From: Planctomycetota bacterium
GTDB lineage: Bacteria > Planctomycetota > Phycisphaerae > UBA1845
Assembly (NCBI GenBank): GCA_043806315.1
Contig: JAZDHF010000266.1
Coordinates: forward strand, 7,560 to 71,559
DNA length: 64,000 nt
Direction of reading: 5' to 3'
Below are positions 8,193 through 55,135 of the stretch, piece after piece. A model generated the notes under the pieces. That model made no database searches. It was not told the origin of the DNA and was given only the letters and a program-made list of their open reading frames with translations. The first letter of the stretch is position 1. Every line of letters begins with the position of its first letter. The translations under genes and the position numbers were made by a program.

Positions 8193-8238
8193 CACGCGAT
8201 GGGATCCGAGTCGGGGACTGGCGGTTCTGTGCGAGGTA

Positions 8239-8312
8239 TCGGGGCGGCTCGATTCGAACGAGCAGCCTCCTGGTCCCAGGCCAGGCGCGCTACCGGGCTA
8301 CGCTACGCCCCG
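8239..8312 (-). tRNA. trnP: tRNA-Pro (anticodon UGG), 74 nt, no encoded CCA, C at position 33
   Basis: Cloverleaf built by hand. Acceptor stem CGGGGCG/CGCCCCG pairs 7/7. D arm is GCGT-AGCCCGGTA-GCGC. Anticodon arm is CCTGG-CCTGGGA-CCAGG. Variable loop is AGGCT. T arm is GCTCG-TTCGAAT-CGAGC. Discriminator is A. Confidence 0.85.
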
Positions 8313-8322
8313 ACAAGCGAAA

Positions 8323-12851: not shown

Positions 12852-13103
12852 TCACTTCCCGGTCTGCCGATGTTCCTTCAATTCCTGATAGATCCGTTCG
12901 AGCATCCGGGCATTCGAATCCAGCCGCTCCAAGACGCCGGCCTGCACCTTTTCGACTATGGCAAGCCGCGTGAATAATTCCGCTTCAGCCGCGTGCCGTT
13001 GCATCGCCCACCCGCCCATCACGGACATCAGGAGAACCGCCAATATCCCCATGGCCCACCGGATGCTGATGAACCGCTCGCCGTTTTCGTTTTTACTCGT
13101 CAT
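12852..13103 (-). CDS. lysis-accessory candidate (83 aa; TM plus coiled coil, i-spanin-like)
   Basis: TM segment WAMGILAVLLMSVMGGWAM followed by a helical charged tail. It lies beside the holin and endolysin. Confidence 0.5.
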   Translation of the reverse strand: MTSKNENGERFISIRWAMGILAVLLMSVMGGWAMQRHAAEAELFTRLAIVEKVQAGVLERLDSNARMLERIYQELKEHRQTGK

Positions 13104-13427: not shown

Positions 13428-14666
13428 TCACACCTCCACCTTCTCTCCCAAAAACATCGCCCGCTCCAACTCTCGCCGCGCTACCAGGGCATCCGAGACC
13501 ACGCCCCGCGAGTGCCGCCAGCGGGAGAATTGATTTGCGGCTTCGACAACCTTACCCTGATCGAGTAGCCGCACCAGGGTCGATGCCCGGAACGCCCCAG
13601 CGCCTATATTGAAGCAATTATGTGAGATCAAGCCATTGGAGAAGAATGTCTTTGTGCTTGTCTGAATGCTAATGACCTCTCCATGGATTGCCGACTTGAT
13701 CTCCAGGATGCCGGCCTTAGGGAGATTGTACATCCCCCTTACGCCGTCCCAATTTCGCATAGCGTTTGCGATGAGTCGCCTAGGGCGAAGAGTTCCGACC
13801 GCCCTAAATACATCAGGTAGGCCACCCTGAATATTATACTGCCCATAGGCGACCCCCTTATTCGGTTTGTGACACCCAACAATGAATCCGCGCTCCCTAA
13901 GAAGTCGAATAGCCAGGTCGGATACGGAGCCATCGTTTTGGCTGAACCCAACCTGTAACGACTTGTCTCCGGCTTGGCCTATAACGGTGGCATATCCTTC
14001 GCCGTCCAGAAACCCAGCAAGGTATCCTCCGTCATAACTGCAATCGGATTCCCACATGGGCAAGTATGGGAGTCTATAGATTCCATGCCGAAGTCCGCCG
14101 CGCCTTCCGTTTTCCGCTGTCATTCTGGCCGATAGTCGGTCTACGCGGGTCCATCGATACTTGGGATGGCCTGATGATTGAACCAGTATTCGATGGTCCG
14201 GAGTAGCGGTGAGTTCCCCATGATCGGTGAGAAGAATAAGTCGCTCCGACCGGAATCGCTTTACGGATTCGACGACGCCGATACGGAGTTTTCGGCTTTT
14301 CCCGCCATTAACATTTTCCTCATCTATGCCCCAGATTTGCAATCCCGGCCTTACGGAGTCAGCGGCGACCCAACAGAAATCGGCGGAGAGAATGCGGGTC
14401 TCCGGTGCCACACAAAGGCTCACAAGAGCATCGTACTGGCACTGTTCGAGAGGAACCCTGACCGTATTCACCGCCCGCTCGAATTCCCGCAGTCTCTCTC
14501 GTAGAAGCGCCTCCGCGTCAATCTCGGTGATCTCCCGGCCCAGCCATGCGGTCGGATTGACCTGGCAGCCGAACCCAATGGCCCAGCCGTCGGCGTCGGG
14601 ATAAAGGTGCGAGCGGAAACCTTCGGCGCGCTTCAGGAAACTGAGACCTTGGGGGCTGAGAATCAT
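13428..14666 (-). CDS. GH24 (T4/P22-type) lysozyme endolysin precursor interrupted by an intein (412 aa; 146 aa after splicing)
   Basis: N-extein is LKRAEGFRSHLYPDADGWAIGFG...QYDALVSL. C-extein is CFNIGAGAFRASTLVRLLDQG.... Joined, they give a normal-size lysozyme. Confidence 0.85.
   Translation of the reverse strand: MILSPQGLSFLKRAEGFRSHLYPDADGWAIGFGCQVNPTAWLGREITEIDAEALLRERLREFERAVNTVRVPLEQCQYDALVSLCVAPETRILSADFCWVAADSVRPGLQIWGIDEENVNGGKSRKLRIGVVESVKRFRSERLILLTDHGELTATPDHRILVQSSGHPKYRWTRVDRLSARMTAENGRRGGLRHGIYRLPYLPMWESDCSYDGGYLAGFLDGEGYATVIGQAGDKSLQVGFSQNDGSVSDLAIRLLRERGFIVGCHKPNKGVAYGQYNIQGGLPDVFRAVGTLRPRRLIANAMRNWDGVRGMYNLPKAGILEIKSAIHGEVISIQTSTKTFFSNGLISHNCFNIGAGAFRASTLVRLLDQGKVVEAANQFSRWRHSRGVVSDALVARRELERAMFLGEKVEV
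13617..14414 (-). mobile_element. class-1 intein with LAGLIDADG homing-endonuclease module (aa 85-350, 266 aa)
   Basis: Starts with Cys1 (TGT at 14414-14412, CVAPETRIL). Carries TPDH (block B) and YLAGFLDGEGY. Ends ...NGLISHN (AAT at 13619-13617) followed by Cys+1 (TGC at 13616-13614). The DNA is AT-richer than the flanks. Confidence 0.8.
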
Positions 14667-18271: not shown

Positions 18272-21200
18272 TCAAAATCCCTTTCCCAGTGGCGCGAAGT
18301 GTTGCGCCGGTTTCTTCGCCGGGAAGACGTAGTTTGCGATGCGCGGTCCCGCTATCGGGATGCGACCGAAGACCTGACGAGCCAGCGACCGCATCTGCCA
18401 GTCGCCCTTTTTAATGCCCGCGCGACCGCCCGAGTACAGATTGTAGGCCGCGCTTCCGGCTTCCGAACCCGATGGCCCCGCCGCCCACTCGTACATCCGC
18501 TCCTTGCCCCACGCCATGCTCTGCATGAAGTCGGAGGCGACGCCAAGCGCGCCGTTCGACGCGATATCGTTCCAGTAGCGCTCCAAACCTTCGTCTTCAC
18601 GTTTCCTCCCGCTGATGAGGTTCCGCAATCCGAGAATCGCCTCTCCCGTAATCGGGAAGACCGTGCCTAGGACGAGGAGCGCACCAAAGGCTTCGCCGGG
18701 TCTGCCGCGCCGCAACTCTCCCACCAGTTCGTCCTGCACCAACTTAAACTGGTTGAACGCGAAGTTCTTAAATTGGAACGCCACGCGGCCCATCGGAGTA
18801 GATGCCCACTCCGGCAGGTCCAGATACCGCGCTCGAAACTGAGTCAGATCCGAGAATCGCTTGGCCGCTATCAAGGCGTCCTGCCCGGTTACCTTGCCCA
18901 CCGCCAAGAGATTGTCTGGGCCAAGCCCCATCTGTTCCAACCGGAATCGCGCCTTCGCATCCTTGGGATTCTTCTTCAGGCGTTCCAGCATGGAATCGGC
19001 GTAGATCCTGCCTATGTTGGCTGAGAGGATGCGATTCCATCGCTCGGTTGGCGTGAACCCAGTTGCCGTCAGGAACTTGCTCAATGCCGCGGAATCCTCT
19101 CCGGCATATCGGACCATCTCGTTGATGACGCCTTCGAGCGACGCGCCGGATTCCATTCCGAAACGCCGACCTTTCGGCGTGAGGGCGCGCGCCCATCCGC
19201 GAATCACGATGTCCGGTCGCTTCGTGACGAGCAACGGGTTCAGCGTTCCCTGAACCGAGTTGGCGATTGACGCCGTGCCGAGTCTGAACCCTTGCACGAT
19301 ACGGATAGCGCGGGAAGCCCGAGCGATTCCGGTATCCGGTTCGTTGGCGATGCGGAGAGCCTTGTTGACGTTCAGCCGCACATTGATGGCGTTCGGGTTC
19401 TGCGAGATCGACCGGACCAGTTCGTTGATGACTTCGTTGTTCTGTCCGAACTCTCGGACCTCGGCCAAGCGCATCGAAACGTCGTGAGTCCAGACGGGCA
19501 GGATGCGGAGTGGGTCGGGATCCCACAGAGGCAGGTCGATGTCGCGCGAGTATTCCAGACTCCCCTGCCGATGGATGTGTTGCTTGCGGAAAATCTTCAG
19601 GAGTTTGAAGGCGTTTGCTCGGGCTTGGGCCTCCGTCTTTCCCGTGACCTGTCCAGAGTCGATCAGATATTGCTCCAGCGCCCTCACTCGCCCGCCGCCA
19701 TCGACGTACTTTCGGTATCCGTCGATGAACGCCTGGGCCTCTTCCACGTTTTCCACTACCCCGAGGCGTTGCAGATTCGCCGCGATGTCGCGCCGAATCG
19801 GTCCCTTCTTTCCAAGGATGTCGGTGTTCGGAATTACCTGCGGGAAGTAGTCTTTCCATTCCTCGAAAGGACTCTTGACCCGCAACCGGACTCGTCTGTC
19901 GGCGTCTTCTGCCAGCCGCAGGGAGATCTTCTGCTGTGAGGTCAACTTCATCTCCGGCGACGGTAATTCGCCCGGCTCGAAGATGTGCGCCCGCGTCTTC
20001 ATGATCTTCGCGGCCTTCGCCTCCGTCGCCGTCTCTGCGGCGATGGAACGGAAGATGTCAGCGGTCTTCTGAATCTCGGGAGACGCAGCGGGCGCCTCGT
20101 TCCGCAGCACGTCGATCAGGGAACCGTCTCCGCTCCACCGTTGTTCCGGCGTCAGTTCGTGCAATCCGCCGTCGATCATCAGGCGAGCGATGCGCGGTCC
20201 CGCTTCCGTCGCTCCCACATCTTCGGCGTGGTACATCTTGCCGACAAGTTCCTTGCCTTCGGGGCCTTCGCGTTGGAGACGTGAAGCGGTGGAACGGAAG
20301 ATGGTATCCAGGAGGACTCGCGCGGCGTTCGGGCGTTTCGAGTACTCTGCGCCTTCGAGGATGGCATCCTTCTCGGCGGGTTTTAGGGAGAAGGAGCCGC
20401 GCTCGCCTTCGTTGGGGCGGGAAGTCGAGATGATTTTGCGCCCCTTCTCAGGTGGAGTCGAGTGCGTCCGGGGGGTCGGATAGTTCGGGTCAATCGAGCC
20501 ATCCGGTTTAACCGCTTGCACCTTCACTCTGAAGTCGCCGTCCGGTTTCTCGTTATATTCCAGAACCTTGTCCAGCCCACCGCCGTAAGCCTCGACGACG
20601 TTGCCGGGTTTGTAGAACTCCTTGCGCCGCGCGACTTCGGCCTTACGTGCCGCAGTTCCGGTCAGTTTCCCCTTCCTCTCCGCGACGGCCTTTGCGTTGC
20701 GGGTGGAGGCGGCGGCGAGGGGCGCGGGTTCCAGCAACGCGAGACGTTCCGCCTTTCCTTCCTTGGACAGATATGGACTCTGGCGCGTCGCCTCCGCCAT
20801 CTTTATCCGCTGTTGGGGAGTCAACTTCGCCAGATTCTCATGCCACTGAGGCGTGAGGACGTCCGATTGGACCTCGGTACGAGCACGTTCTCCGCGCGTG
20901 TCCACCACGAACGCCCGGTCTCCTTCTCTCACAACCTCGTCTCGACCAACCTCGAAATCAGAGATCTGGTCGGCACGCATGAGTTTCTTCGATCTCGCTG
21001 GCGGTTTCGCCGCAGGACGCGCGCTTGGGGCAACGGGTTCCGGTTTGACTGTCGATTCCCTTGCGGCTTGACGTTCAGCCTTCGCCTTCGCATCATAAGC
21101 GGCATACTCCGCGTGGTTCTTGTTCCATACAGCAACCGTGTTTCGAGCCTCTTCGAGCGTCGGGAAATTGCTGCCAAAGGTGCTGTTCAGACCACGGCTG

Positions 21201-24200
21201 AAATGCTTCACCTGATACTGACCGTCGGGCCAGCGATTGACGGTGTACACTCCGGTCCCGACATCCGGGTTTACGGCGGGGATCGTTTCGACGAACTCAG
21301 GTTTAGTGGGGGCGAGTTTTTCTTTTACCTCCGCCGTCTTCTGCTTCGCGGCTTCCGAGGCGGCTCGAAGTTTGTCCGCTCCCCGCTCCGGGCCAGCGGA
21401 CCCGGCAGCCTTCGGAGCGGCGGCGGCTTGGGTTTCCTTCAGTCTGTTCTGTGCATCCCGAAGAACCGCTTCCAATTCCTGTTTCCGTTGCCCAAGTCTT
21501 ACGTTTTCGGCACCAGCCTCTTTCGGTCGAAGGGTCCAAACGCTTCTGATGGATTGTTTCACCTGCTCAAGTTCGGATTCGGCCTTTACAACCTTCATCA
21601 ACGCGGCGTGTTCGGAAACCTCCATCCCCGCCGCAGGGCCAGCGGCCCCCACTTCAATAGGAGCGGCAGCGGGCTTGTTTACGGGGGCGACCTCCGCTGC
21701 GGTCGCTGGCCCTGGAGGTGGCTCGCGTGCGGGGGCGGCAATCCGTGGAGGCGCGGGTGGAGGCGCACCGGGAGGGAGAAGTCGGGAGAGCGCCCGCTTC
21801 AGATTCGGCAAATAGTTCAGGATGTACTGATCCAGAGTTGTTTCCCCCGCCGGTTTATTCAGCGCGACGACTTCCCTGACGTGACCTAAAATCACCGGGT
21901 CTTCCAAGGCGCGTGCGGCAACGGAAGCGGGCATCGCGTGTCGTCCACCGTTCACATCCTTGATGAAAACCTGTCGGTCTCCATGCTCCCGAACGATGGC
22001 AGAAAGATCATCGTCCGCAATGAGGTATCCTCCCTCCTTTGCGACCTCTTCCCATGACCGCACACCCGTAATGGGTTTCCGCGGCGGCAAATCCTGATCC
22101 ACTGGGGGAACCCTCGACACTCCATCGAACCGCTCCGCAAATGGGACTTCCGGCGAGACCCCGGCCAATTCAAGCCGATCCGATTCTGGAAGTTGATCGA
22201 ATAAACTGAACATCTGGGCCACGGCTTCATTCGGTTTACCTTCGGATAGCATCTGGGCGTAGCCGGGAGAATCCTTCGCTATCAACTGGAGATTTCGCTT
22301 GGCGATGCTCGCGAGTACCTTCCGTTGCCCTTCTGAACTTCGTTCCCAGATCGTCTCCCCCAACTCGTGCAACAAGGTTCCGTGCAAATCGGCCGCGTTT
22401 GGGTTCAGTCTGACAACCCCGCCCGCCGTGACTCCACCCTCTTGACTGAACTCGAAGGTGTTCGGCGAGTCAACCCGTATCTTCGTGATACCCGCCTGTT
22501 TTGCAAGTTGTTCTATGAGCGGGTTTGAACTGGCGCGCAGGAGACCCTCTTCAGCCTCTGGGGAGAGGGGAAACTTCAACTCAACATCCAACCTCGTTCC
22601 AGTTGGGACCAACCCTGCCGCTTCCCTCTTCGCTCCAGCAGCCTCAGCGGGGTGGGGCGGAGCGGGCGTGGTATCCTTAGAGTAATCCGCGACAGCGGAG
22701 GTGGACGGCTTGACCGTTGCGGGCGTGGGCGCTTCAGCCTGCGCCCGTTCAGGTTCATAGAAGTCTTTGCCGTAGCGATCTTCGATCTTCCCCTTCTCGG
22801 GTCCGTCGAGCCACTTAAACTTCCACCCCGGAATCTGATCGAACCCTCGACCCTTTCCAATGATCTCGACAGGCTGAAGGCCGCTTTCAGATTCGTGAGT
22901 CCACAGGATCTTCCCAGCCCCCGGAACTGCTGAACGCAATCCCTTCGCCCCAGATTCTACGCTTTCGATTTGAACTGGTCCTTCGTTCGTGTAGTTGGTG
23001 CGCTTCGACCGTTCTACCCAAGAGGGCAACCGGGGTGGCGGTTCAGACGGTCTCGCTACTTCAGGTGTCGGTCGGACTACCGGCGCGGGCGCGATGGAGC
23101 GCGTTCCCCCACGAGAAGAACTTGCAAACGCCCTAACCTGCTGATCGCTGAATACTCCCCCACGTCCATCGCCATACAGACCGATTCGCGGATTCCATGT
23201 AAGCGTGTCGCCCCCGTCGGTGACGTATGATTCCGCCATCCCCTCGGGAACGGGTGCCCGACCCGCCTCAAGAGCTTTCTGGGCCTCACTTCGCTGCTTG
23301 TAGACAGGGACCTGCGCTGGCGCGGGCGGAACAGGTTCGGCTGGCGCAACGGGTTCTCCCTTCGATGCGAGGTCGTTCCACTTGGCGCGGGGCATTACGT
23401 CTTCATGGACGTTGCCCTTGAGGTTGGTGAAACGGAACCGGACGTTGTCGCCTTCGGGACCGACGGGTTCGTAACTTCCCTGCTCAATGCGGAAAGGCGC
23501 AAGAGGCGCGTTCCGTCTCGCCAACTCGGCGGCTACCGTTGCGTCCAATGCTTCCAACGGCACTTCAGGGTCACCTGGCTTGACCGGCTTCGGTGGCTTC
23601 GACTTCTCTGCCAGGTCGAGCAACTGATCGTCGGGCAACTGCTTGATCGCCTCCGCCGTGGCCTTCTCGACCTCGACCGGTTGCATCTTGCGGATCTTGG
23701 CGGCAATCTCTGCAACCTTGGCTTCATTCTGCGCTTTGGCTTCCTCCGCAAGCGCCTTCGCCGCTTTCCGTTTCTCGCTGAAGATTTGGTCTGGCGTCTT
23801 GGGCTTCTCGCCTTCCGCGGCAGGTAGCGGCTTCGGTTCCGCACGTTTCTTCGCGTCGTTGAGCCACTGGCGTTGCGCCTTCTTCGTGATGGCGTTCAGC
23901 GGCTTGCCCGTGGCGTAGGACACCCCTGCGGTCTGCGCGGCTTCGACCAAAGCGACCTGTTTCTTCAGTTCCGCGAGATCCTTGGTGGACGGGACCGCGC
24001 CCTGCGGCGGAACTGCCTCTACAGGCGGTTTCTGCGCCCCCGGAGCCACGTCCGACCACTCGGGTTCCACCGGGCCTGCCAGCTTGCCGCGAAGGGCGCC
24101 AGCACGGGCACGAACGCGCGCCTGAGCCATCGAGAGAGGTTGGCCGGCCTCTCTTACCGAGACCTGCATTTCTTGACCTTCTCCCGCCCCGTGCAGTTGC

Positions 24201-24961
24201 GTTCGGGCAGCGACCTTACCGACCTGCTCGACAAGTCCAGGCTCTATCTTGACGCTCAGGTCCGGTACTTTCGCCTGTGGCGACAGATCCGGTTGGGCAA
24301 CCGCCGGCTGCTTCGTCAGAAGTTGCCGACTCTTCCCAATCGCGTGCTTGCCGGCGAGTAGTGCGAAGAGGGACTCCACCGTCCCAAGTCCCAGAGCGTG
24401 CGCCGCACCGGGGTAGTCACCAGACTTCACTTTGCCCCAGGCGTCCTTCCCGGCTTCGTAGGCCCCGGTCCCCATCGTTCCGCTGAAGTAGGCCGACAGA
24501 GCGGTGTCCGCGACCTGGAATGCCTTCATCCCAATTCGGGGGACCGCCTTGACCGCCGCGCCCGCCCCGCCGATGCCAAGCAGGAGGCTGGCGTTCTCCG
24601 CCGTACCGAGACCCTCGATGCCTTCGACGACTCCGCGCATCGCCTCCAGGGGGATGCCACCCTTCTCCTGGGGCAAGAGGAGGGACGGTTTGATCGGAGG
24701 CGTCTGCATGGCCTCGCGGCCCTGTTCCACCGTCATCTTGGCTTGCGGCATCGGGGCCGTCGGTGCGCCGAAGCGACTGATTGCGCCCGCGACCTTGGGT
24801 AAGGTTTCCTTGGCGTGGGCCAGCGCGCGATCCCAGGGGCCAACGGCGGGGACCGGAGCGGTGGCAGCCGTTGCCTCTGCCGGCGCGTTCTCGGCGAACC
24901 AATCTCCAGGCGGCGGAGGCGTTGCCGTACTTGGAGCGTTCTGGGTGAACCAGTCTGACAT
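18272..24961 (-). CDS. giant virion-internal/ejection-type protein (2229 aa)
   Basis: Single 6.7-kb ORF. Duplicated N-terminal DWF..NAP motif, Gly-zipper hydrophobic segments near both termini, and long Ala/Lys/Glu/Pro-rich linkers. It follows two smaller internal-protein-like genes. Confidence 0.75.
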   Translation of the reverse strand: MSDWFTQNAPSTATPPPPGDWFAENAPAEATAATAPVPAVGPWDRALAHAKETLPKVAGAISRFGAPTAPMPQAKMTVEQGREAMQTPPIKPSLLLPQEKGGIPLEAMRGVVEGIEGLGTAENASLLLGIGGAGAAVKAVPRIGMKAFQVADTALSAYFSGTMGTGAYEAGKDAWGKVKSGDYPGAAHALGLGTVESLFALLAGKHAIGKSRQLLTKQPAVAQPDLSPQAKVPDLSVKIEPGLVEQVGKVAARTQLHGAGEGQEMQVSVREAGQPLSMAQARVRARAGALRGKLAGPVEPEWSDVAPGAQKPPVEAVPPQGAVPSTKDLAELKKQVALVEAAQTAGVSYATGKPLNAITKKAQRQWLNDAKKRAEPKPLPAAEGEKPKTPDQIFSEKRKAAKALAEEAKAQNEAKVAEIAAKIRKMQPVEVEKATAEAIKQLPDDQLLDLAEKSKPPKPVKPGDPEVPLEALDATVAAELARRNAPLAPFRIEQGSYEPVGPEGDNVRFRFTNLKGNVHEDVMPRAKWNDLASKGEPVAPAEPVPPAPAQVPVYKQRSEAQKALEAGRAPVPEGMAESYVTDGGDTLTWNPRIGLYGDGRGGVFSDQQVRAFASSSRGGTRSIAPAPVVRPTPEVARPSEPPPRLPSWVERSKRTNYTNEGPVQIESVESGAKGLRSAVPGAGKILWTHESESGLQPVEIIGKGRGFDQIPGWKFKWLDGPEKGKIEDRYGKDFYEPERAQAEAPTPATVKPSTSAVADYSKDTTPAPPHPAEAAGAKREAAGLVPTGTRLDVELKFPLSPEAEEGLLRASSNPLIEQLAKQAGITKIRVDSPNTFEFSQEGGVTAGGVVRLNPNAADLHGTLLHELGETIWERSSEGQRKVLASIAKRNLQLIAKDSPGYAQMLSEGKPNEAVAQMFSLFDQLPESDRLELAGVSPEVPFAERFDGVSRVPPVDQDLPPRKPITGVRSWEEVAKEGGYLIADDDLSAIVREHGDRQVFIKDVNGGRHAMPASVAARALEDPVILGHVREVVALNKPAGETTLDQYILNYLPNLKRALSRLLPPGAPPPAPPRIAAPAREPPPGPATAAEVAPVNKPAAAPIEVGAAGPAAGMEVSEHAALMKVVKAESELEQVKQSIRSVWTLRPKEAGAENVRLGQRKQELEAVLRDAQNRLKETQAAAAPKAAGSAGPERGADKLRAASEAAKQKTAEVKEKLAPTKPEFVETIPAVNPDVGTGVYTVNRWPDGQYQVKHFSRGLNSTFGSNFPTLEEARNTVAVWNKNHAEYAAYDAKAKAERQAARESTVKPEPVAPSARPAAKPPARSKKLMRADQISDFEVGRDEVVREGDRAFVVDTRGERARTEVQSDVLTPQWHENLAKLTPQQRIKMAEATRQSPYLSKEGKAERLALLEPAPLAAASTRNAKAVAERKGKLTGTAARKAEVARRKEFYKPGNVVEAYGGGLDKVLEYNEKPDGDFRVKVQAVKPDGSIDPNYPTPRTHSTPPEKGRKIISTSRPNEGERGSFSLKPAEKDAILEGAEYSKRPNAARVLLDTIFRSTASRLQREGPEGKELVGKMYHAEDVGATEAGPRIARLMIDGGLHELTPEQRWSGDGSLIDVLRNEAPAASPEIQKTADIFRSIAAETATEAKAAKIMKTRAHIFEPGELPSPEMKLTSQQKISLRLAEDADRRVRLRVKSPFEEWKDYFPQVIPNTDILGKKGPIRRDIAANLQRLGVVENVEEAQAFIDGYRKYVDGGGRVRALEQYLIDSGQVTGKTEAQARANAFKLLKIFRKQHIHRQGSLEYSRDIDLPLWDPDPLRILPVWTHDVSMRLAEVREFGQNNEVINELVRSISQNPNAINVRLNVNKALRIANEPDTGIARASRAIRIVQGFRLGTASIANSVQGTLNPLLVTKRPDIVIRGWARALTPKGRRFGMESGASLEGVINEMVRYAGEDSAALSKFLTATGFTPTERWNRILSANIGRIYADSMLERLKKNPKDAKARFRLEQMGLGPDNLLAVGKVTGQDALIAAKRFSDLTQFRARYLDLPEWASTPMGRVAFQFKNFAFNQFKLVQDELVGELRRGRPGEAFGALLVLGTVFPITGEAILGLRNLISGRKREDEGLERYWNDIASNGALGVASDFMQSMAWGKERMYEWAAGPSGSEAGSAAYNLYSGGRAGIKKGDWQMRSLARQVFGRIPIAGPRIANYVFPAKKPAQHFAPLGKGF

Positions 24962-36171: not shown

Positions 36172-39100
36172 TCATTCCACCTTCACCGTCATCGGCGCAC
36201 CCAACGAGACCCGCGCCAAACCTGCCGTGAGGTATTCGACGAAAACCGGATGATTCCCCTGCCGGGCGTCCATATTGACTTGACAGGGGGAACTCGAACA
36301 GGTCGTGATTGTTACTTTGCCTGAGGGCGCCGTTGAGGTGAACTTCGCCAGCGTCGCCCCGGCGGGCATGAAAAAGCCGAACTGCATCGCCCGCACGACT
36401 TCCGGCGCCACTCCACCCAACCTCACCGCGGGCCATTGGTGGGCCATTCCCATGCCAAAGAAAAAGCCGGTCCATTTATACGCGCCCAAGGAAACATCGG
36501 AGTTCTCATCGCGGACATAGTTGCTGTCCGAGTAGACGCCGCCGGTCGTGTAGGGCGGGTAGCCCCAGACCGAGCCGTAGGCGGTATCGCCCCAGCTCTG
36601 GACCGTGGGCGTGGGGACCGCCTCGTACTGCGCTCGCAACGCCGAGGACGCCTCCGCCGTCAGCACCCGGCCCGCGCGGATGGAAGCCGGATTCAAGCCG
36701 TAGTTGCATCCGACCTGCCGGAACTCGAATGCCGTCCCCGGCGGCGAGGTGACGTAGGGTTCGCATTGGTCGAACACCCGTCCGTAGTGCAGCCCCTGAG
36801 TCTCGGGATCGTATCCGGTCGAGTAGATCCACGCAGCGGCCAGTGGAAGCAACGCCGCGTAACCGGAGGAGATAGTTGGGTCGTCGTTCTGGCTGGCCCA
36901 GGTGAAGGCGTGCGTTTTCACCCCGAGCATGAACGGCTGCTGACCTCGGCCAGCGATGCCGTTAGCGCCGTAGACATAGATGTGAGACGTAGTGGAGTTC
37001 GCCCCGTCCCAAGCGCGTTGGAGCGTGATTTGAATGGCGCTATCCAATCTGCACACCCAGTTCTTCGCTAACTGCGCGCTGTCTTGGCTCTCTCCAATCG
37101 TCGCAACTCCCCCGAAACTGTCGATCATCCAGGTGATCGAGCCGGTGTCGCCAGGCCACAGTGCGGACAGGGTTAGCGGGCTGGATGTTCCGGTGTATTT
37201 GTAGAACCCCGTGTAAGGGGAACCGCTCCGCGTGCCGGTCACTGCGATCATGTTGCCGGAAGTGAAACCGCTGCCCGTGAGCGTTGCGGAAGCGCTAGTT
37301 GCGCTTCCCGTTCCGCTGGCGGTCACTTTGCATCCTGTATTCGTAGCGGTCAGTCCAGTTCCGGCGGCCGTCGCGCTGCCGTTTGTTAGTGTAAGATGTG
37401 GACTGGCGTTGTTCCATAAGGAGGTCGCCCACGAGTTGTCCGTCTGTTTGCAGTTCTGATCTCGCGTCAGGACGGCGGTTAGACTGGCCTTCCAGGCTGC
37501 GCGTTTGGTCGCGTCCGGGTCGAAGTTCGCTCCCAACGTGAGGGCCGCGGCGAGGTACCCGCTGTCCCTGGCGTCGTAATCGTAGCATCCGGCCGCGCCG
37601 ATCGCTCCACCCGCGACGTAGGGCCGCACATCCCCCCAGCCGATCGGGGCGGATGAGTTAAGCAGGACGTTCGCAATCGCGCCAAGGGCGCCCCCGCCGT
37701 AGTTCAGCGGAGACCCGCCTGGGTTGGATACCTCCGGGTTGCGAATCCAGTTGTCGTCCATCTCGTTGGCGGCGGTTAGGGCAGAAGTCAAGCCCGAACG
37801 GTAGTAAAGCGCCCGGTGCGCCAACCCTTCGCCATAGAAGTTCGGGCCGTATGAATTGCGGTACCCAAGGCCGTCCACGAAGGTGTAGGTCTTGCCGGAG
37901 AAGGTGTCGTTATCCAACCCGCCGCCGTATTCGATTCCCGGCTTCCCATACGCCGCCGTCTCGGATTCGCAGCCAGTCGCAAGCACCAGGGCCTTCGTTT
38001 CGCTGGCGTCCACGCGGGTGTAACCGAGACCCCAATAGCGGGTGCTGACTTGAACGATCTTATAGGTGAATGTTCCGGCGTCCGCATCGGCTGGATAGGC
38101 GCGGGCGAGCGTGATGCTGGTGGCACCGCCGACCGAGGAGACATAGGCCGCGAACACAAACGGCGTCCCTACGGCATGAGTCGCGGCGACGCGCAGCCAA
38201 ACCGAACTCCCCCCGGTGACTCCGTTTGCCGTGGTCCAGACCGTTCCCACGCCGGTAACCGCCGTCGAGCCGGGTGTCATCGTGACGGTTCCCGTGGAGT
38301 AGGGCACTCGCCCCGCGGGACCGTTTGCGCCCGCTGGACAGATCGGGACCGCGGCATCGGTCAGGAATGTCGTGGCGGTCCCAGTGACGCGATACTGACC
38401 TATGTATGTCGTCGTGGCGGTCCAAGCCTGCGCGTTCTGGCCGCGCCCGTCGTAACAAACGGTCAACGTGTTCCCGGAGGCGGAGCAGACGCGGACCTCC
38501 TCGGTGGTATAAGACTGCTGACAACCCGTACTGCCCGTTCCTAAACAGATACGCACCGGCGTCCCCGGAAGACCGGCAAGATCCAGTTTCGTCGCGTCGG
38601 CCACAACGATAGTCAAGTCCGTTGCGTTGATGGTTGTTGCCAGGGTGGTGTCGGCGGTTCCAATGCTGCCGACCCCGGCAAGAATGAAACTGACCGTCCC
38701 GGCGCCGTCGTGGATGAAACTCGGGTGGGCAATCGAGTACCCGTTTCCAGCCACGGTTTCGTAGACGGCTTTCCGTAAGGTGGTGGCCGCCAGCGCCCGC
38801 TCGTCCGCGTAGCCCCAAGGGTTCCGCCCATAGGCGATCATCGGACCGAAGATCGAGTCCACGTTCGGATCGGCGTTCACCACCACACCGTTGTCGTCGG
38901 TGGCAACCGCTCCGATGTGGGCGGTTCCGGTTCCCATCTGCCCCGCCGGGTCGGTGACTTGAAGTTGAATAAGGTAGTCCCCGAATACCAGGCCAGTCAG
39001 CGTCGGAGTGCCACTAGTGCGGCTGGACCATAATGGAACAGACGGGCCGCTAAGGCTCTGCCAGAAATAGATGACGCCCGCGCCCGCGTCGCTTTGGCTG

Positions 39101-39855
39101 TAACTCCCGGACCCGTCCAACTGGCCCGCGTGTCCCGCGCGAAGACTGACCGTATTCGTCCACGATGGGGCGCCGTAAGTTTTCAGTAGTGGGAACACGA
39201 GCGTCTGACCGGGCGTGGCCGGGTACGTTGCAGACCCTCCGCTCAGGGTAGCGGTGTACCCGTTCCCGCTGGAGTCGGTCAAGCCACCATCGAACTTCCA
39301 CTCCAGCAGATCGCCAGTATCGGCGGTGACTGGCGGGCGGGAGTTCGTATCGGCCAACGACGTAAACAGACGCGTATACGCCGTACTCATAGCTTCGCCC
39401 GCGCCTTGGACCCACGCTCCATTACCGTTCGAGCCGGAGTGTCCCGTGTACTGCTGGATCGTCCCGACGAACCTCGTTCCGTTCACGTCCCATGCTTCGC
39501 AGCGGGTCTGCAATGTGGCGTGGTCGATCTGAAAACGATACGAGAAGAACTTGCTAGGTAGCGCTGATAGATCGATCCCGCAAAAACTCCCGCCCGTCCC
39601 TCGTGTCCAATAAATCTGGTAATACAGCGCCCCGGCATTGTTCTTCGCCTGAATGTCGATTCCGCAGGCTGCAACATCCGCCGGATGCCCCGGAGTCCAA
39701 TTGTCGGTCCAGTCGTGAATGGACTGCTCCAACCGGCAGGGGGTCTCGACGGCCTGCGCCACGACGGAGGTGTTCTCGGCCTTGGCAGCGGTGACCCGAA
39801 GCGACTGGCCCGCGAACGCCGTGAAGGCAACCAAGAACAGAGTTAGGGGTCTCAT
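36172..39855 (-). CDS. large multi-domain receptor-binding/depolymerase-like protein with signal-peptide-like N-terminus (1227 aa)
   Basis: Start at ATG 39855 (ATGA overlap). N-terminus MRPLTLFLVAFTAFAG-QS. It contains a LamG-like segment (LLEWKFDGGLTDSSGNGYTA) and a PKD/Ig-like segment (VIYFWQSLSGP...LQVTDPAGQ). Confidence 0.75.
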   Translation of the reverse strand: MRPLTLFLVAFTAFAGQSLRVTAAKAENTSVVAQAVETPCRLEQSIHDWTDNWTPGHPADVAACGIDIQAKNNAGALYYQIYWTRGTGGSFCGIDLSALPSKFFSYRFQIDHATLQTRCEAWDVNGTRFVGTIQQYTGHSGSNGNGAWVQGAGEAMSTAYTRLFTSLADTNSRPPVTADTGDLLEWKFDGGLTDSSGNGYTATLSGGSATYPATPGQTLVFPLLKTYGAPSWTNTVSLRAGHAGQLDGSGSYSQSDAGAGVIYFWQSLSGPSVPLWSSRTSGTPTLTGLVFGDYLIQLQVTDPAGQMGTGTAHIGAVATDDNGVVVNADPNVDSIFGPMIAYGRNPWGYADERALAATTLRKAVYETVAGNGYSIAHPSFIHDGAGTVSFILAGVGSIGTADTTLATTINATDLTIVVADATKLDLAGLPGTPVRICLGTGSTGCQQSYTTEEVRVCSASGNTLTVCYDGRGQNAQAWTATTTYIGQYRVTGTATTFLTDAAVPICPAGANGPAGRVPYSTGTVTMTPGSTAVTGVGTVWTTANGVTGGSSVWLRVAATHAVGTPFVFAAYVSSVGGATSITLARAYPADADAGTFTYKIVQVSTRYWGLGYTRVDASETKALVLATGCESETAAYGKPGIEYGGGLDNDTFSGKTYTFVDGLGYRNSYGPNFYGEGLAHRALYYRSGLTSALTAANEMDDNWIRNPEVSNPGGSPLNYGGGALGAIANVLLNSSAPIGWGDVRPYVAGGAIGAAGCYDYDARDSGYLAAALTLGANFDPDATKRAAWKASLTAVLTRDQNCKQTDNSWATSLWNNASPHLTLTNGSATAAGTGLTATNTGCKVTASGTGSATSASATLTGSGFTSGNMIAVTGTRSGSPYTGFYKYTGTSSPLTLSALWPGDTGSITWMIDSFGGVATIGESQDSAQLAKNWVCRLDSAIQITLQRAWDGANSTTSHIYVYGANGIAGRGQQPFMLGVKTHAFTWASQNDDPTISSGYAALLPLAAAWIYSTGYDPETQGLHYGRVFDQCEPYVTSPPGTAFEFRQVGCNYGLNPASIRAGRVLTAEASSALRAQYEAVPTPTVQSWGDTAYGSVWGYPPYTTGGVYSDSNYVRDENSDVSLGAYKWTGFFFGMGMAHQWPAVRLGGVAPEVVRAMQFGFFMPAGATLAKFTSTAPSGKVTITTCSSSPCQVNMDARQGNHPVFVEYLTAGLARVSLGAPMTVKVE

Positions 39856-40946
39856 CGAATGCTTATCCCCCTGTGCCGCGTCGCCCCAGTGCCGGCGTAG
39901 GTTTCCCACGTTCCACCTCCGACCCAGAAGGTGCTCGGGTCGAATTGGTTGTTATACTCGGCTAGAATCCAGTCGGCGGAACGGACAATGGAGGAAAGGC
40001 ACACCTCGTCAAGAATGGAACCGCTTGCCATCGGATAAGCCGTATTACCCCGATTAAGGAGTTGCCCTGTAGCGCTGAAAGTTGAAAAGTGCGTAGTGCC
40101 AGTTGTTCCACTTGGCGCACCATTGATGTAAAACTGTGTAATTGTACCATCGCTGGTCAAGACGACGTAGTAATATCCGGTTACAGAGATGGAACCAGCG
40201 GCGCTCAAAGCTCGGTTGGTATAATTTCCGCCGAACAAGTGAGTTCCATTGTCCACCATTATCTCCATCGAATCACCATCGCTCGCGTAAATGGAGATAA
40301 TCCCCTGATAACTGGCTACATCGGCAAAATGTACCCAAGCCGACAGCGTTAGCACATTAGAACTAAATAAGTTAGCTGGTAATGTTATTTGTTGCGTTAC
40401 CCCACTAGACTGCGCCCCACCGTCAACTTTCCCCGCAACTGCCGAAGCATTAACTACTGTGCCATGCTTAGCATTCGAAGTTGAATCCAATGCGCTCAGT
40501 GTCGTCCCGTTCGGCAAGTGCCACACCCCTAGGTAGTTCGAGTTCCAGACGCCGGTTATGTTCTCCTGGCTGGTGGTGACGGAAGCGTTTCCCACGAAGA
40601 TATATGTCAAGGTATTAGCCAAGTGGGAAACCGAAGGTTCTCGAACCCAGACGCAGAACTCGCCCGTCGCATGGTCGTACCGCTCGATCTCGTGATCCAA
40701 CCTCGTGTTTCCAGGAGCGTCGCTGGTGAGAACGATGTCGTAGCCGTTCAGATCCGTCGCGTAGCCGCCATGAGAAGTGTGGGCCAGGGCCGCATCCGTT
40801 CGGCAATAGAGCGCCGGAAAGTTCGCGTGCGTCGAACTGCCCACCTTGGTGTAGTCGATAGCATCGGTGTAGCGATAAGTGTACCCGTTGCCCCAGGCTC
40901 CCCAGCAGGGAAGGGCCAGCAACGCAAGGATGAGGAGTTTCGTCAT
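39852..40946 (-). CDS. DUF2341 plus LamG-like fibre protein with signal-peptide-like N-terminus (364 aa)
   Basis: Start at ATG 40946 (ATGA overlap). N-terminus MTKLLILALLALPCWGAWG. DUF2341-like pattern NFPAL...GYDIVLTSD...LDHEIERYD...GEFCVWVREP...TYIFVGN, then a LamG-like HLPNG...SAWVHF. The DNA is markedly AT-richer. Confidence 0.75.
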   Translation of the reverse strand: MTKLLILALLALPCWGAWGNGYTYRYTDAIDYTKVGSSTHANFPALYCRTDAALAHTSHGGYATDLNGYDIVLTSDAPGNTRLDHEIERYDHATGEFCVWVREPSVSHLANTLTYIFVGNASVTTSQENITGVWNSNYLGVWHLPNGTTLSALDSTSNAKHGTVVNASAVAGKVDGGAQSSGVTQQITLPANLFSSNVLTLSAWVHFADVASYQGIISIYASDGDSMEIMVDNGTHLFGGNYTNRALSAAGSISVTGYYYVVLTSDGTITQFYINGAPSGTTGTTHFSTFSATGQLLNRGNTAYPMASGSILDEVCLSSIVRSADWILAEYNNQFDPSTFWVGGGTWETYAGTGATRHRGISIR

Positions 40947-43900
40947 GGCAGTTGGAAGATCAGCGTCACGATCAGTCCCTTGGTCCCCGTCCCGGCCACG
41001 TCCACGTCCACGCGGATAATCTGATCCGTCGCCACATCGTCCTTGGTCGCATCGATCACCGCCGCCGCCGCCGCGCTGGTCGTCGAGTTCTCGTTGATGT
41101 CGATGGTCATTCGAGTCGAAAGCATGTCGTCGCCCACGCCCGAGCAGGCGTTTCCAGTGGCGGCGTAGGCGCAACGAGTGATCTGGACGGTTGGCACGCC
41201 CGACGTGCTGGCGGTGATGACTTGCGCCTTCACGCCCACCAGGTTCATCCCGTTCAGTCCCGGTGGAACTACGGAGTATATCTTCCCGTCGCCGGTGGCA
41301 ACATCGTCGATTGGGCCAAACACTTCCAGTTGAACCGTCCTGGTGCCGAAGATCGTGGAACCAGCGAGGCCGTCCGGCGTCACTGCGAGCGCAGCGGAAC
41401 TCCCCGCCGTCGTCTGAGCGGCGTTGGCAAACAGGGGCGTGCTCACCAGTTCCTTGAAGGCTCCCGCTGCCGTGTCCAGTGCGGCATCGTAAGAAATCGC
41501 GTAGTCCAGACCCGCCAAACAGGCCATGCTGGTCGCGCCATCGGCACCGAATAGTTTCTTCGCCCCGAGCGTGTCGATGTTCAGGGTCGCCGGAGTCCCG
41601 GTGCAGTTTACGTCGGGCCGGAACTTCAGGGCCATGCCGTTTGTGTAGGCCGTCAGGACGGGCAGCAACGTCGCAGTGAAGACCGTTCCACTGGCGCTGG
41701 CTGGGATCGCCACCGTGTCCGTTCCCGCCTGCCCTTGCGCCCGCGAAAGCATCGTGGCGGTATCGGCGCTCACGGTGGGGTTGCCCGCTTGGAGGTCGCC
41801 ATTGACCACGAGTATCCCGGCGCCGGCTTCGAGCGTCCGGCTGACAGTCGTATTGACGGCGACGCGACCTACCATCCCGTTTGAGCCAGGGTCGCCAAGC
41901 CCACCGCCGCCCCCAGATCCACCGCCTCCGCCGGGATACCAGTACGTCCCGTCGAAGACAAGGGAGAGCATTTGGTTCTGAGCAACCGTCTGAGTCTTGG
42001 CGATACGTCCGGCGCCGGACCCGCCCGTGGCCACGCCACCTGGCGCGGCGTTGGTGAACACCAGCGCGATCTCCCGCCCGATCCACCCTCCCGTGATCTT
42101 GGTTACGGTGGTCGTTCCGGTGACTTCGAACGTCGGGTTCATCGGCGCGGCGATGGTGGCTCCCGAGGCGACGGTGCCGATCACGTCGTCGATGCCCTGA
42201 TTCTCGCTGAGAACAACCCGAGTCAATGCCCCGCCAACAACCAAAGGAGCCGTGTCGTTATTGTACAGGGAGTTTCCAGAGATCATTCCATCTGTAAGCG
42301 CACCAGCAATGACAATTCCATACTTCTGGTGGCCGGTACCTGTTGTGTTATAAATCGGACAGTTTGTGACTTGCACTCGCGTAGCGCCGTCTACGATCTG
42401 GACGGCCCCTATCGCCGCAGTGTTGCTAAGGTTGTTGTCAGTAATCGAGACGCCATTGATTCTGATATATCCAGTGCCCGCATTCTGACCGATCCAAAGA
42501 CCGTTGATGCTGCCTCCGGCTATCCATCCCCCTGTGAATTCAATGTCGCCGGCGTTGATCGTGGGTCCGTAAGCGATTGCCACTACGGGGCCAACCGCCG
42601 GGAAAGTAAGTCCCTGAGAGTGGAAATGGCAGTCGTTGAACCGTATCCCGCCAAACGCCCCGGTTCCTGCAATCGTAAGGACGTAACTGCGTGCGCCGTC
42701 CACTTGGCAACCAACGAACTGAAGGTTTACCGTATAATCTGGCGTAACCGAAGTAACTGCAATCCCCGTATCTCCGGCGAACCCAGAATTGGTGACCCAG
42801 ACTCCATCTGCATTGTTGATGATGATTCCGTATTGTAGGACGTTTGCATTCGTAAGCGGATAACCAAACGATAGACTTCGATTAATGTAAGTATTCACAG
42901 CCATTCCAGTAATTTGAATACCGGAGATTGCCTTGTAGGTCATATCCCCGTTCATATACAGGAAATCGTCGATGTTGGAGAAACTGGTGCCGTTCAGGAA
43001 AAGCCCATACCTGCCATTGAAAATCTGCACGTTGGACACCCTGGCCGTCGTGCCCGTATTGTAAAAGATCCCCGCTCCGCTCGTCGGGATGTTGTTTCCT
43101 CCGTGGATCGACAGATCCCGAAACCAAACCTCCTTACCCGCGCCCGAAATGAAGAACATATCGCCGGTAGTAAAGTCGGATGCTCGTTGGACCATCCACC
43201 CGCCAGGACCGTGACCCTCGATAGTAATGTTCTTGGAAATGGTAACTGGAGCGTGAAAGTAAATAGGACCAGTGGCTTCCCAGTCCGGTATGGCAATCCG
43301 AATTACCGCTGGCTCTCCTGACGCCTGCACCGCCTCCTGAATCCCTCCCGTCGCGCTGGCGATGTTGAATGCTCCGCTGTGGTTATAGACTGGAATGAAT
43401 GTGATTGTCCCTGTTGGGTCCCCGGCGTGACCCGCGCCCCCCGTGATGAGAACCGCCTCCGCCGTGCCGGTCCCCCCGGAGATGTAGAGGTAGTGCGCCG
43501 CATCGTCGTGGTTCACGCCCAACGGCATTGGCGTGAGCGTCACCGTATTCGGCGCTCCGCCGTTCAGGGTCCCGCCCGGAGTCTGCGCGGCGAAGTTATA
43601 ACGCGAAACCGAAGTAGCCAGGGTGGTCGCCATCCCAGTGCTCACCACGTCGCCGGTCAGATTCCCCGTGATGCTGGCGGCACTGCCGCTTGCGTTTCCC
43701 GAGAGAGTCGCGGTAAGCGTGCCCGGAACGGTCAGGTTTTGAATCGTGGCGGTTTGGGTTCCCAGGACATAACTCAGGCCGGAGTCTCCGCCGAAGGCCC
43801 CGACTTTATTGAACTGGACGTTGCCGTTCGCTCCGCCCGGAGCGGTAGCCGATCCTCCGCTCAACAGCGTCCAGGTGTCTAGCGACGTGCAACCGAACCA

Positions 43901-44233
43901 GTTCTGACCCGCCGCCGCGTCGGTGTCGAAGAAGACCTGGCCGGGGACGCAAGCCACCGGCGCCGTGACTCCCGCCTTGTGACTGATCGGATGCCAAGCA
44001 TAGGAGGCTACGCCGGTCTGGACGCACTCCCAGAGTTGGGTAGGCACAGTCGCCGGGTTACCCGTCTGGAGATAGTAGGAGTTGACTTCCCCCGAGGCGT
44101 CGCAGGAGGCGGCGGTCGGGGCGGCGGTCCCGTAGGCCGTGATGCGTCCGCTCGCCCCGAACACCTGCGCTCGAATCGGAACCGCCGCCAGCGCCAGAAG
44201 CGCCGCCAGAACGATGAATCTAGGCATGGTCAC
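40943..44233 (-). CDS. tailspike, right-handed beta-helix (pectin-lyase-fold) depolymerase-like, signal-peptide-like N-terminus (1096 aa)
   Basis: N-terminus MTMPRFIVLAALLALAAVPIRA-QV. Beta-helix rungs NITIEGHG, LSIHGGNN, VSNVQIFNGRYGLFLNGT, GIIINNADGVWVTNSGF. Confidence 0.8.
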   Translation of the reverse strand: MTMPRFIVLAALLALAAVPIRAQVFGASGRITAYGTAAPTAASCDASGEVNSYYLQTGNPATVPTQLWECVQTGVASYAWHPISHKAGVTAPVACVPGQVFFDTDAAAGQNWFGCTSLDTWTLLSGGSATAPGGANGNVQFNKVGAFGGDSGLSYVLGTQTATIQNLTVPGTLTATLSGNASGSAASITGNLTGDVVSTGMATTLATSVSRYNFAAQTPGGTLNGGAPNTVTLTPMPLGVNHDDAAHYLYISGGTGTAEAVLITGGAGHAGDPTGTITFIPVYNHSGAFNIASATGGIQEAVQASGEPAVIRIAIPDWEATGPIYFHAPVTISKNITIEGHGPGGWMVQRASDFTTGDMFFISGAGKEVWFRDLSIHGGNNIPTSGAGIFYNTGTTARVSNVQIFNGRYGLFLNGTSFSNIDDFLYMNGDMTYKAISGIQITGMAVNTYINRSLSFGYPLTNANVLQYGIIINNADGVWVTNSGFAGDTGIAVTSVTPDYTVNLQFVGCQVDGARSYVLTIAGTGAFGGIRFNDCHFHSQGLTFPAVGPVVAIAYGPTINAGDIEFTGGWIAGGSINGLWIGQNAGTGYIRINGVSITDNNLSNTAAIGAVQIVDGATRVQVTNCPIYNTTGTGHQKYGIVIAGALTDGMISGNSLYNNDTAPLVVGGALTRVVLSENQGIDDVIGTVASGATIAAPMNPTFEVTGTTTVTKITGGWIGREIALVFTNAAPGGVATGGSGAGRIAKTQTVAQNQMLSLVFDGTYWYPGGGGGSGGGGGLGDPGSNGMVGRVAVNTTVSRTLEAGAGILVVNGDLQAGNPTVSADTATMLSRAQGQAGTDTVAIPASASGTVFTATLLPVLTAYTNGMALKFRPDVNCTGTPATLNIDTLGAKKLFGADGATSMACLAGLDYAISYDAALDTAAGAFKELVSTPLFANAAQTTAGSSAALAVTPDGLAGSTIFGTRTVQLEVFGPIDDVATGDGKIYSVVPPGLNGMNLVGVKAQVITASTSGVPTVQITRCAYAATGNACSGVGDDMLSTRMTIDINENSTTSAAAAAVIDATKDDVATDQIIRVDVDVAGTGTKGLIVTLIFQLP

Positions 44234-54553: not shown

Positions 54554-55135
54554 TTATACCTGCTCCCTCAGCCTCTTTACCGCCCGTTCCTTCCACGCCT
54601 CCACGGTGTTGGCCTTAACCGGACGCCGCATCAGCCGGGCGATCTCCCCGAACCCCAACCCGGCGCAGTAACGCAGGCGCACCACCAGGCGCAGGCGCAC
54701 CGGCAGAGCGTCCACCCGGCGCCAGACGGCGGCGCGAAACTCCTCGTAAGCCATTAAGGACTCGGGGGATGGAGCGGAATCGGCGCGGTAAGTTGCCCGG
54801 TTAGCCGACCAGTCTGGAGTTTCATCGCTCAGAAACATCCGCGGAACCCCTTGCGGCACCCAGGTCAGCCGCGCCGGCTTCCTCCGCCCCAAGTCCCGAA
54901 CCGCCCCCGCTACCGGCTTCCTGATCCACGCGCCCAGCGGGACGCCGCGGGAAGCGTCCCAGCGGTCCACCGCCTGCACCAGAGCCAGGTAGGCTACCTG
55001 GCGGGCTTCGGCCAACTCGATCCAAGGGGGCAACTTCCGATGCTCCCGCTCGGCAAGACCGGCGGCAAGCGGCATCTGGGAGAGAATCAGCGACTCGCGC
55101 GCCTTGCCGTTGCCTTTGGCGGGCGCTTGCCTCAC
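54554..55135 (-). CDS. sigma-70-family (ECF-like, two-domain) RNA polymerase sigma factor (193 aa)
   Basis: Region-2-like YLALVQAVDRWDASRGVPLGAWIRKPVAGAVRD. Region-4 HTH LRYCAGLGFGEIARLMRRPVKANTVEAWKERAVKRLRE. Confidence 0.8.
   Translation of the reverse strand: MRQAPAKGNGKARESLILSQMPLAAGLAEREHRKLPPWIELAEARQVAYLALVQAVDRWDASRGVPLGAWIRKPVAGAVRDLGRRKPARLTWVPQGVPRMFLSDETPDWSANRATYRADSAPSPESLMAYEEFRAAVWRRVDALPVRLRLVVRLRYCAGLGFGEIARLMRRPVKANTVEAWKERAVKRLREQV

Follow-up and report, generated by a model that had tools for sequence, protein, structure and literature searches.

What occupies the middle of a phage lysozyme gene that begins and ends as a normal lysozyme and is nevertheless 412 codons long? 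The question is posed by a minus-strand open reading frame (ORF) in a 64,000-nucleotide stretch of contig JAZDHF010000266.1 (assembly GCA_043806315.1, Planctomycetota bacterium), to which we refer in its entirety as the window. A preliminary description of this DNA had read the ORF as a glycoside hydrolase family 24 (GH24) lysozyme split by a full-length intein, and had gone on to suggest that slow or redox-gated splicing might serve as a lysis timer. The first of these proposals is borne out by the analysis presented here and the second is not. We conclude, with a probability that we put at roughly 0.85, that a selfish class-1 intein with a single-motif LAGLIDADG endonuclease has invaded the SL/CFNIG motif (the slash marks the insertion point) of a tailed-phage GH24 lysozyme, a probable endolysin.

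The ORF is a GH24 lysozyme interrupted inside the SL/CFNIG motif. PF00959 (Phage_lysozyme) matches the 412-residue precursor as two stretches, the better of which pairs aa 12–85 with profile positions 1–75, and lysozymes of known structure cover aa 3–85 and aa 352–406 in two segments that are contiguous in the PDB chain (residues 42–127 and 128–182 of 9kbs). The alignment with PDB sequences places the insertion point at the junction of residues ~90 and 91 of P22 lysozyme, and the reading frame is uninterrupted across the 412 codons. When the exteins are joined in silico (aa 1–84 plus aa 351–412), the 146-residue product matches PF00959 over its full length (positions 1–125 of 125, E = 2.5e-34) and, where the structures align, is 32–44% identical to PDB lysozymes; removal of the insert (aa 85–350, nt 13617–14414) would thus leave a normal lysozyme, as had been anticipated. 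The catalytic residues Glu15 and Asp24 are unchanged in an alignment of all five intein-bearing lysozymes, that is, the window protein and the four relatives described below. NCBI lists an identical protein, encoded on a contig of 72,369 bp and named 'MAG: glycoside hydrolase family protein [Planctomycetota bacterium]'; the assignment of the phage to a Planctomycetota host comes from binning only.

The exact insertion point is fixed by intein-free alleles, the search for which had been suggested at the outset. At the position of the junction, intein-free lysozymes read SLCFNIG (in the context ...DALVSLCFNIG...), SFCYNVG, or LLAFNIG, and the Cys that occupies the +1 position of the intein is a native residue in many of them. 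Because intein-free relatives read SLCFNIG here, excision of the insert and ligation of its flanks would recreate the native motif. The insertion falls in a helix that we take to be the counterpart of the buried helix of residues 93–106 in the C-terminal lobe of T4 lysozyme, and since a 30-kDa insert in this core helix should block formation of the active enzyme, lysozyme activity very probably needs splicing. The nearest intein-free allele, the 147-residue protein P0020, reads LLAFNIG and so has Ala where a Cys, Ser, or Thr nucleophile is needed at +1. An allele of this type would be unable to support splicing if invaded and may represent a resistant or never-invaded lineage.

The anatomy of the insert is that of a class-1 intein, with every feature that had been listed from the letters in place. 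It opens with CVAPET, the Cys (Cys85) being intein residue 1, holds the block B sequence Thr155-Pro-Asp-His158 and a single LAGLIDADG-type motif, YLAGFLDGEGY, and closes with SHN (His349-Asn350 in block G), directly followed by Cys351 at +1. In a family alignment of 35 intein sequences, C1, H74 (the block B His), H265, and N266 are invariant. The five lysozyme inteins, which have diverged to ~50% identity, keep Cys1, Ser/Thr-x-x-His, His-Asn, and Cys+1 intact and invariant and retain the acidic residues of the endonuclease; conservation of the catalytic positions despite this divergence points to purifying selection. The insert also stands out by composition, and its higher AT content, noted earlier by eye, proves to be well marked: its G+C content is 0.53 versus 0.61–0.62 in the flanking exteins, and G+C at third codon positions (GC3) is 0.545 versus 0.70–0.71. 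When 22 other genes of the 64-kb stretch were scanned in sliding windows of 798 nt, all 219 of these had a higher GC3 than the insert (mean 0.717, minimum 0.556). At three homologous loci the GC3 of the intein is likewise lower.

Homology searches place the insert in a known intein family. A tblastn search of 50,697 phage genomes aligned aa 73–351 at 33% identity (E = 1e-32) with terminase-like proteins of cluster C1 mycobacteriophages (Cali, LRRHood, ET08, and others), and BLASTP against Cali gp243 (33% identity, E = 3e-39) gave an alignment from Cys289 to Asn557/Ser558, which corresponds to intein residue 1 through the +1 residue. The Cali-type intein is Pham3880-g, whose copy in ScottMcG gp245 was spliced in a reporter and was the only one of five inteins tested to leave visible precursor (Kelley et al. 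2016, PMC5050341). When 1.84 billion representative proteins were searched exhaustively with phmmer, >140 large proteins were found to match aa ~82–352 only. The +1 position of 170 intein segments of this family bounded by Cys1 and His-Asn is occupied by Cys (99 segments), Ser (54), or Thr (17). A Pfam scan of the host proteins of 10 relatives gave matches in seven, namely to DNA polymerase A in three (one of them fused to a uracil-DNA glycosylase domain), to RecA, to a portal protein, and to UvrD helicase, with the Intein_splicing domain as the seventh; the terminase-like host is known separately through the mycobacteriophage alignment. PF14890 matches relatives within the same family (8e-12), and an NCBIfam model for an intein-containing radical-SAM protein matches aa 62–353 of the precursor at E = 9e-11, with a score far under its curated cut-off, which is set for the whole protein. 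A search of the PDB with the insert sequence alone gave subthreshold matches only and was uninformative. Word-indexed protein searches returned six proteins with the insert as query and 17 with the 35-sequence profile, recovering the same five lysozyme inteins. Multiple occupancy was seen in two family hosts: P0016, a terminase-like protein of 1,616 residues, carries two copies of this intein family and a third, different intein, and P0022, a RecA of 899 residues, carries two copies.

The predicted structure leads to the same assignment. In an AlphaFold2 model of the precursor (mean pLDDT 82), the intein part is mostly above 85–90 (aa 90–340) and the extein parts lie at 54–76. The best matches of this model in a Foldseek search of the PDB are TliVMA, PI-SceI, PhoVMA, and PI-PfuI; mini-inteins and the hedgehog Hint domain give target-normalized TM scores of 0.55–0.81 (most of them 0.66–0.81), and GH24 lysozymes rank next. 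Considered together, the end-to-end homology, the predicted Hint fold, and the insertion site, rather than the Pfam models discussed below, identify the insert as a genuine full-length class-1 intein, one that we expect to splice.

Inserted in the Hint fold is a homing-endonuclease domain. In the AlphaFold2 model, residues ~205–310 form an α-β-β-α-β-β-α-α arrangement, and the domain modeled alone (pLDDT 90) matches I-Tsp061I, I-CreI, and I-MsoI (25–26% identity) as well as I-CeuI and I-CvuI; I-CreI, I-MsoI, I-CeuI, and I-CvuI are homodimers. The middle domain is therefore predicted to be a single I-CreI/I-MsoI-like LAGLIDADG core and not a two-motif monomer of the PI-SceI type, and on this model endonuclease activity would need a dimer of inteins. 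Asp221 and Glu223, the acidic residues of the motif, as well as Gln243 and Arg297, are conserved both family-wide and among the lysozyme inteins, which suggests that the nuclease is, or lately was, under selection. A single LAGLIDADG core of ~105 residues is typical of this very large intein family, a trait for which we found no discussion in the intein papers examined.

The distribution of the element is patchy. In 5.8 billion protein clusters, the whole architecture is shared by only four other proteins (P0002–P0005), which are 45–53% identical to the window protein over ~98% of the length and are encoded on separate phage-like contigs of 52–79 kb with unrelated neighborhoods; one of the four adjoins an integrase. 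The intein site is identical in all five lysozymes. The five inteins are 46–59% identical among themselves and at most ~40% identical to inteins of other host proteins, and the exteins that carry them have a mutual identity of only 36–54%. In four cases out of five, the exteins have their nearest relatives among lysozymes without an intein: the window extein is 67% identical to intein-free P0020, the P0004 extein is 60–63% identical to several intein-free metagenome lysozymes, and the P0005 extein matches an intein-free lysozyme at 54% identity, the top matches of P0003 being nearly tied. The inteins thus appear to form one group, with hosts interleaved with uninvaded alleles, a pattern expected if the intein had spread horizontally into this one site (homing) or had been lost repeatedly. 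Because the exteins are not mutually closest and the GC3 of the insert is an outlier, we favor a mobile, homing element. The late region of the P0003 phage appears to contain more than one mobile endonuclease element, since a free-standing NUMOD4/HNH_3 homing-endonuclease gene (L005, 1477–2121, minus strand) is found ~2.6 kb upstream of the P0003 lysozyme in the same late-gene region.

Further lysozymes of this kind were sought in three collections by scans that were non-exhaustive and would let lysozymes with unrelated intein families escape. The junction pattern HNC[FY]N[IV]G found no further intein-bearing lysozyme in IMG/VR, GTDB species genomes yielded family inteins in other host proteins only and none in a lysozyme, and the best 80 metagenome loci gave no further example. 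One GTDB candidate (L026, matching query residues 43–412) was rejected as a Rv2578c-type radical-SAM intein. Partial matches at 23 metagenome loci (aa 1–85, 1–123, and 330–410) were considered as hidden inteins and rejected as alignment artifacts, all 23 being intein-free SLCFNIG lysozymes. A search of all six-frame ORFs of the window with the family HMM found the lysozyme copy and no second one.

These data are most simply accommodated by the following scheme. The 412-residue precursor would be translated with the intein splitting the core helix of the C-terminal lobe, and would most likely be inactive. Cys85 would undergo an N-to-S acyl shift, assisted by Thr155 and His158, to form a thioester with Leu84, which Cys351 would attack in a trans-thioesterification to give a branched intermediate. 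Cyclization of Asn350, assisted by His349, would then release the intein, and an S-to-N shift would rebuild a Leu84-Cys351 peptide bond to yield the 146-residue lysozyme, which would build up in the cytoplasm until a holin opens the way to the wall. Once released, the intein would act as a dimer and probably cleave, at the SL/CFNIG motif, the uninvaded lysozyme alleles that co-infecting phages carry; repair of the cut would copy the intein in. Homing of this sort into intein-free alleles is our proposed reason why unrelated phages share this intein and its position.

The genomic setting of the gene bears on what the mature lysozyme does. The window is a tailed-phage genome with nearly all genes on the minus strand. 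Its recognizable genes encode the large terminase (52047–53792), virion and internal-virion proteins, a DnaB-like helicase, and a clamp-loader-like protein, and one further ORF resembles a small terminase. Three small ORFs follow the lysozyme gene, the third encoding 133 residues with a signal-peptide-like start, and none of the three matches a PHROG family. The mature lysozyme has no signal or signal-anchor-release (SAR) sequence and should for this reason depend on a holin. Its small single-domain product, the lack of a signal or SAR sequence, and the adjacent small membrane-protein genes make a holin-dependent endolysin its most likely role. A role as a virion-associated lysozyme acting at the ejection stage, where splicing would matter for assembly or infection, could be read from the position of the gene among late and structural genes, with an ORF for a virion-protein-like Laminin_G_3 protein upstream and large ORFs of unknown function downstream. 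We consider such a role unlikely, however, given that the mature product is a bare catalytic domain of 146 residues with no virion-attachment or tape-measure context, that two small membrane-protein genes directly follow, and that the sister protein P0003 has an extra N-terminal PG_binding_1 domain ahead of GH24, a typical endolysin architecture.

Table 1. Coordinates in the window of the split lysozyme gene, its parts, and the neighboring genes discussed in the text
Feature	Coordinates	Strand	Basis
Precursor ORF, 412 aa plus stop, GH24 lysozyme with intein	13428..14666	-	ORF listing, Pfam, PDB alignments
N-extein, aa 1-84, N-terminal lobe with catalytic Glu15 and Asp24, Ala29 at the third triad position	14415..14666	-	PF00959 profile 1-75; aligns with P22, AbLys, and SpmX lysozymes
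Intein, aa 85-350 (266 aa), Cys85 = Cys1, T155-x-x-H158 in block B, His349-Asn350 in block G	13617..14414	-	Homology, predicted fold, GC3
Predicted homing-endonuclease domain in intein, ~aa 205-310, one LAGLIDADG core (YLAGFLDGEGY)	13737..14054	-	Predicted fold, residue conservation
C-extein, aa 351-412, from Cys351 (+1), CFNIGAGAF..., C-terminal lobe	13431..13616	-	PDB lysozyme alignment resumes directly past N-extein match
Candidate holin, 79-aa ORF, strong hydrophobic segment aa 38-62 and Gly/Ala-rich N-terminal segment	13187..13426	-	Hydropathy; size and position only
Candidate holin, antiholin, or spanin-like protein, 83-aa ORF, transmembrane segment aa 10-35, charged helical tail	12852..13103	-	Hydropathy (inferred)

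Elsewhere on the minus strand of the window, a 193-residue ORF just downstream of the terminase genes (54554–55135) has a weak match to phage RNA polymerase sigma factors (PHROG E = 1.9e-5), and a single tRNA-Pro with anticodon TGG is found at 8238–8313. An ORF of 2,229 residues (18272–24961, minus strand) has no Pfam or PHROG match, and two others of 1,245 and 1,096 residues (36172–39909 and 40943–44233) have weak PKD-like or NosD-like matches only. Large parts of the structural module of this phage are thus without a clear family match.

Several observations weigh against the interpretation of the locus as an invaded and still functional endolysin gene. On the insert, the Pfam model Intein_splicing is subthreshold (E = 0.21), as is LAGLIDADG_3 (E = 0.075); taken alone, a profile search of this kind, which had been put forward as the first check of the intein, would have looked negative. 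Many class-1 inteins have an aspartate in block F, which is missing here and throughout the 35-sequence alignment; a homologue from this same Asp-less family nonetheless splices (PMC5050341). Both splicing and endonuclease activity are inferred for the lysozyme inteins, the nearest homologue seen to splice being only 33% identical. With only one LAGLIDADG core the nuclease needs to dimerize, and the reconstructed target has no obvious palindromic symmetry; the symmetry count at the reconstructed intein-free target (5–6 of 11 positions) is uninformative. The candidate holin has no PHROG family support. Finally, the third residue of the catalytic triad is Ala29 rather than Thr or Ser. This Ala, which occupies position 3 of the GH24 Glu-Asp-Thr triad (in GWAIGFG; 14579–14581, minus strand), is replaced by Thr or Ser in most relatives, and since the closest intein-free relatives, P0020 and P0041, also have Ala, it appears to be a clade trait and not a sign of decay.

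Several of these points would also suit a decayed, non-splicing intein, which would leave a dead lysin or cleavage products only, with another enzyme lysing the host. The subthreshold Pfam models and the missing block F aspartate fit this picture, and the exteins reach a pLDDT of just 54–76 in the precursor model. Decay of this kind is nonetheless the least probable of the alternatives that we weighed: catalytic residues and endonuclease acidic residues are kept across five sequences of ~50% identity, implying purifying selection, the frame of 412 codons is open, and the exteins keep Glu15, Asp24, and a full-length Pfam match. Furthermore, no alternative lysin was recognized among the 30 other window ORFs scanned.

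A functional intein could also have been co-opted as a regulator, with conditional splicing, whether slow or responsive to redox conditions or to temperature, setting lysin supply, lysis time, or burst size beside the holin. In canonical lysis the holin fixes the timing and the endolysin accumulates beforehand in excess, which counts against a timer. Splicing is very probably obligatory for activity in view of the core-helix insertion, and all five lysozyme inteins have the Cys1/Cys+1 pair; however, Cys+1 is native to many intein-free lysozymes and no other pairing is as frequent in the family as Cys/Cys (99 of 170), so that the pair is no special adaptation. The homologous Pham3880-g intein is comparatively slow, with visible precursor (PMC5050341), conditional splicing through disulfides or oxidation of catalytic cysteines is reported for other inteins, such as the mycobacterial DnaB intein (PMC6195587), and the fold matches of the precursor model include 3nzm, the structure of a redox-trapped DnaE intein. 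An extra conserved cysteine that could form a redox switch was looked for in the alignment of the five intein-bearing lysozymes and rejected, as none beyond Cys1 and Cys+1 is conserved among the five (intein C98, C208, and C269; extein C34 and C76). The precursor is made in a reducing cytoplasm, the closest lysozyme relatives lack the intein, and the patchy distribution is that of a parasite. Nothing in the data supports a dedicated lysis timer or redox gate, and co-option as a regulator strikes us as quite improbable. We regard as at least equally improbable that, during infection, splicing is a conditional or rate-limiting step, slowed for instance by a Cys85-Cys351 disulfide under oxidative stress or by temperature, and thereby forms a lysis checkpoint beside the holin; if it were so, host physiology would be tied, through the supply of active endolysin, to the time or success of lysis.

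We thus return to a selfish intein in a lysozyme gene and ask how unusual this is. Intein surveys find hosts mostly among enzymes of DNA replication, repair, recombination, and packaging and other ATPases, and two censuses list no lysozyme or lysin among host proteins (PMC5050341 and PMC4760082). The 224 Lysin A genes surveyed in mycobacteriophages are all reported to be free of introns and inteins (PMC3314691). Our search of the full-text literature, whose coverage leaves most subscription journals outside, found no report of an intein in an endolysin, lysozyme, lysin, or peptidoglycan hydrolase, and returned purification-tag uses, other phage genes, and explicit negatives only; the earlier remark that no described intein in a lysis enzyme was known agrees with this outcome. 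The element is an ordinary member of a large known intein family, and it is the lysozyme host that looks new. It extends the proteins that inteins can colonize to a glycosidase that acts outside the cytoplasm and has no nucleotide-binding function, with the conserved lysozyme motif SL-C-FNIG as a homing site common to unrelated phages. Lysis or zymogram activity would offer a convenient read-out for natural or engineered conditional protein splicing. For annotation there is a caveat, in that standard Pfam scans miss the intein and such precursors are mis-sized in endolysin mining, the present one being deposited merely as a 'glycoside hydrolase family protein'.

Among known systems, the Pham3880-g intein of ScottMcG gp245 and Cali gp243 is alike in sequence from Cys1 to His-Asn (33% identity), in its block A, B, and G residues, and in its compact middle domain with a single LAGLIDADG motif. 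It differs in its host, a terminase-like ATPase, and in a +1 Ser, whereas the host here is a GH24 lysozyme and the +1 residue is Cys; in addition, the lysozyme inteins have an extra Arg/Gly-rich stretch of ~20 residues (RMTAENGRRGGLRHG) before the endonuclease domain, which a minority of the family has. PI-SceI/VMA1, PI-PfuI, and TliVMA, the best structural matches, share the Hint fold with an inserted LAGLIDADG endonuclease and the Cys1 ... His-Asn/Cys+1 chemistry, but possess a two-motif monomeric endonuclease and extra DNA-recognition regions and are 350–450 residues long or more, as compared with 266 residues and a single I-CreI-like core. The predicted spliced product aligns over its full length with P22 gp19, the catalytic domain of lambdoid R21/DLP12, and AbLys1 of an Acinetobacter phage, including the Glu-8x-Asp pair, and differs from canonical soluble GH24 endolysins, which have no intein and a Thr or Ser as the third triad residue in place of Ala29. 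Finally, the nearest precedent for the interruption of a lysin gene is provided by self-splicing group I introns with homing endonucleases, which occupy conserved sites in the lysin genes of the staphylococcal phages K and Twort and of Streptococcus thermophilus phages, and normal lysin is obtained after their removal. Such introns are removed from RNA and involve no precursor protein, whereas the lysozyme intein would be removed from the protein itself, so that an inactive precursor would have to mature before the enzyme could act.

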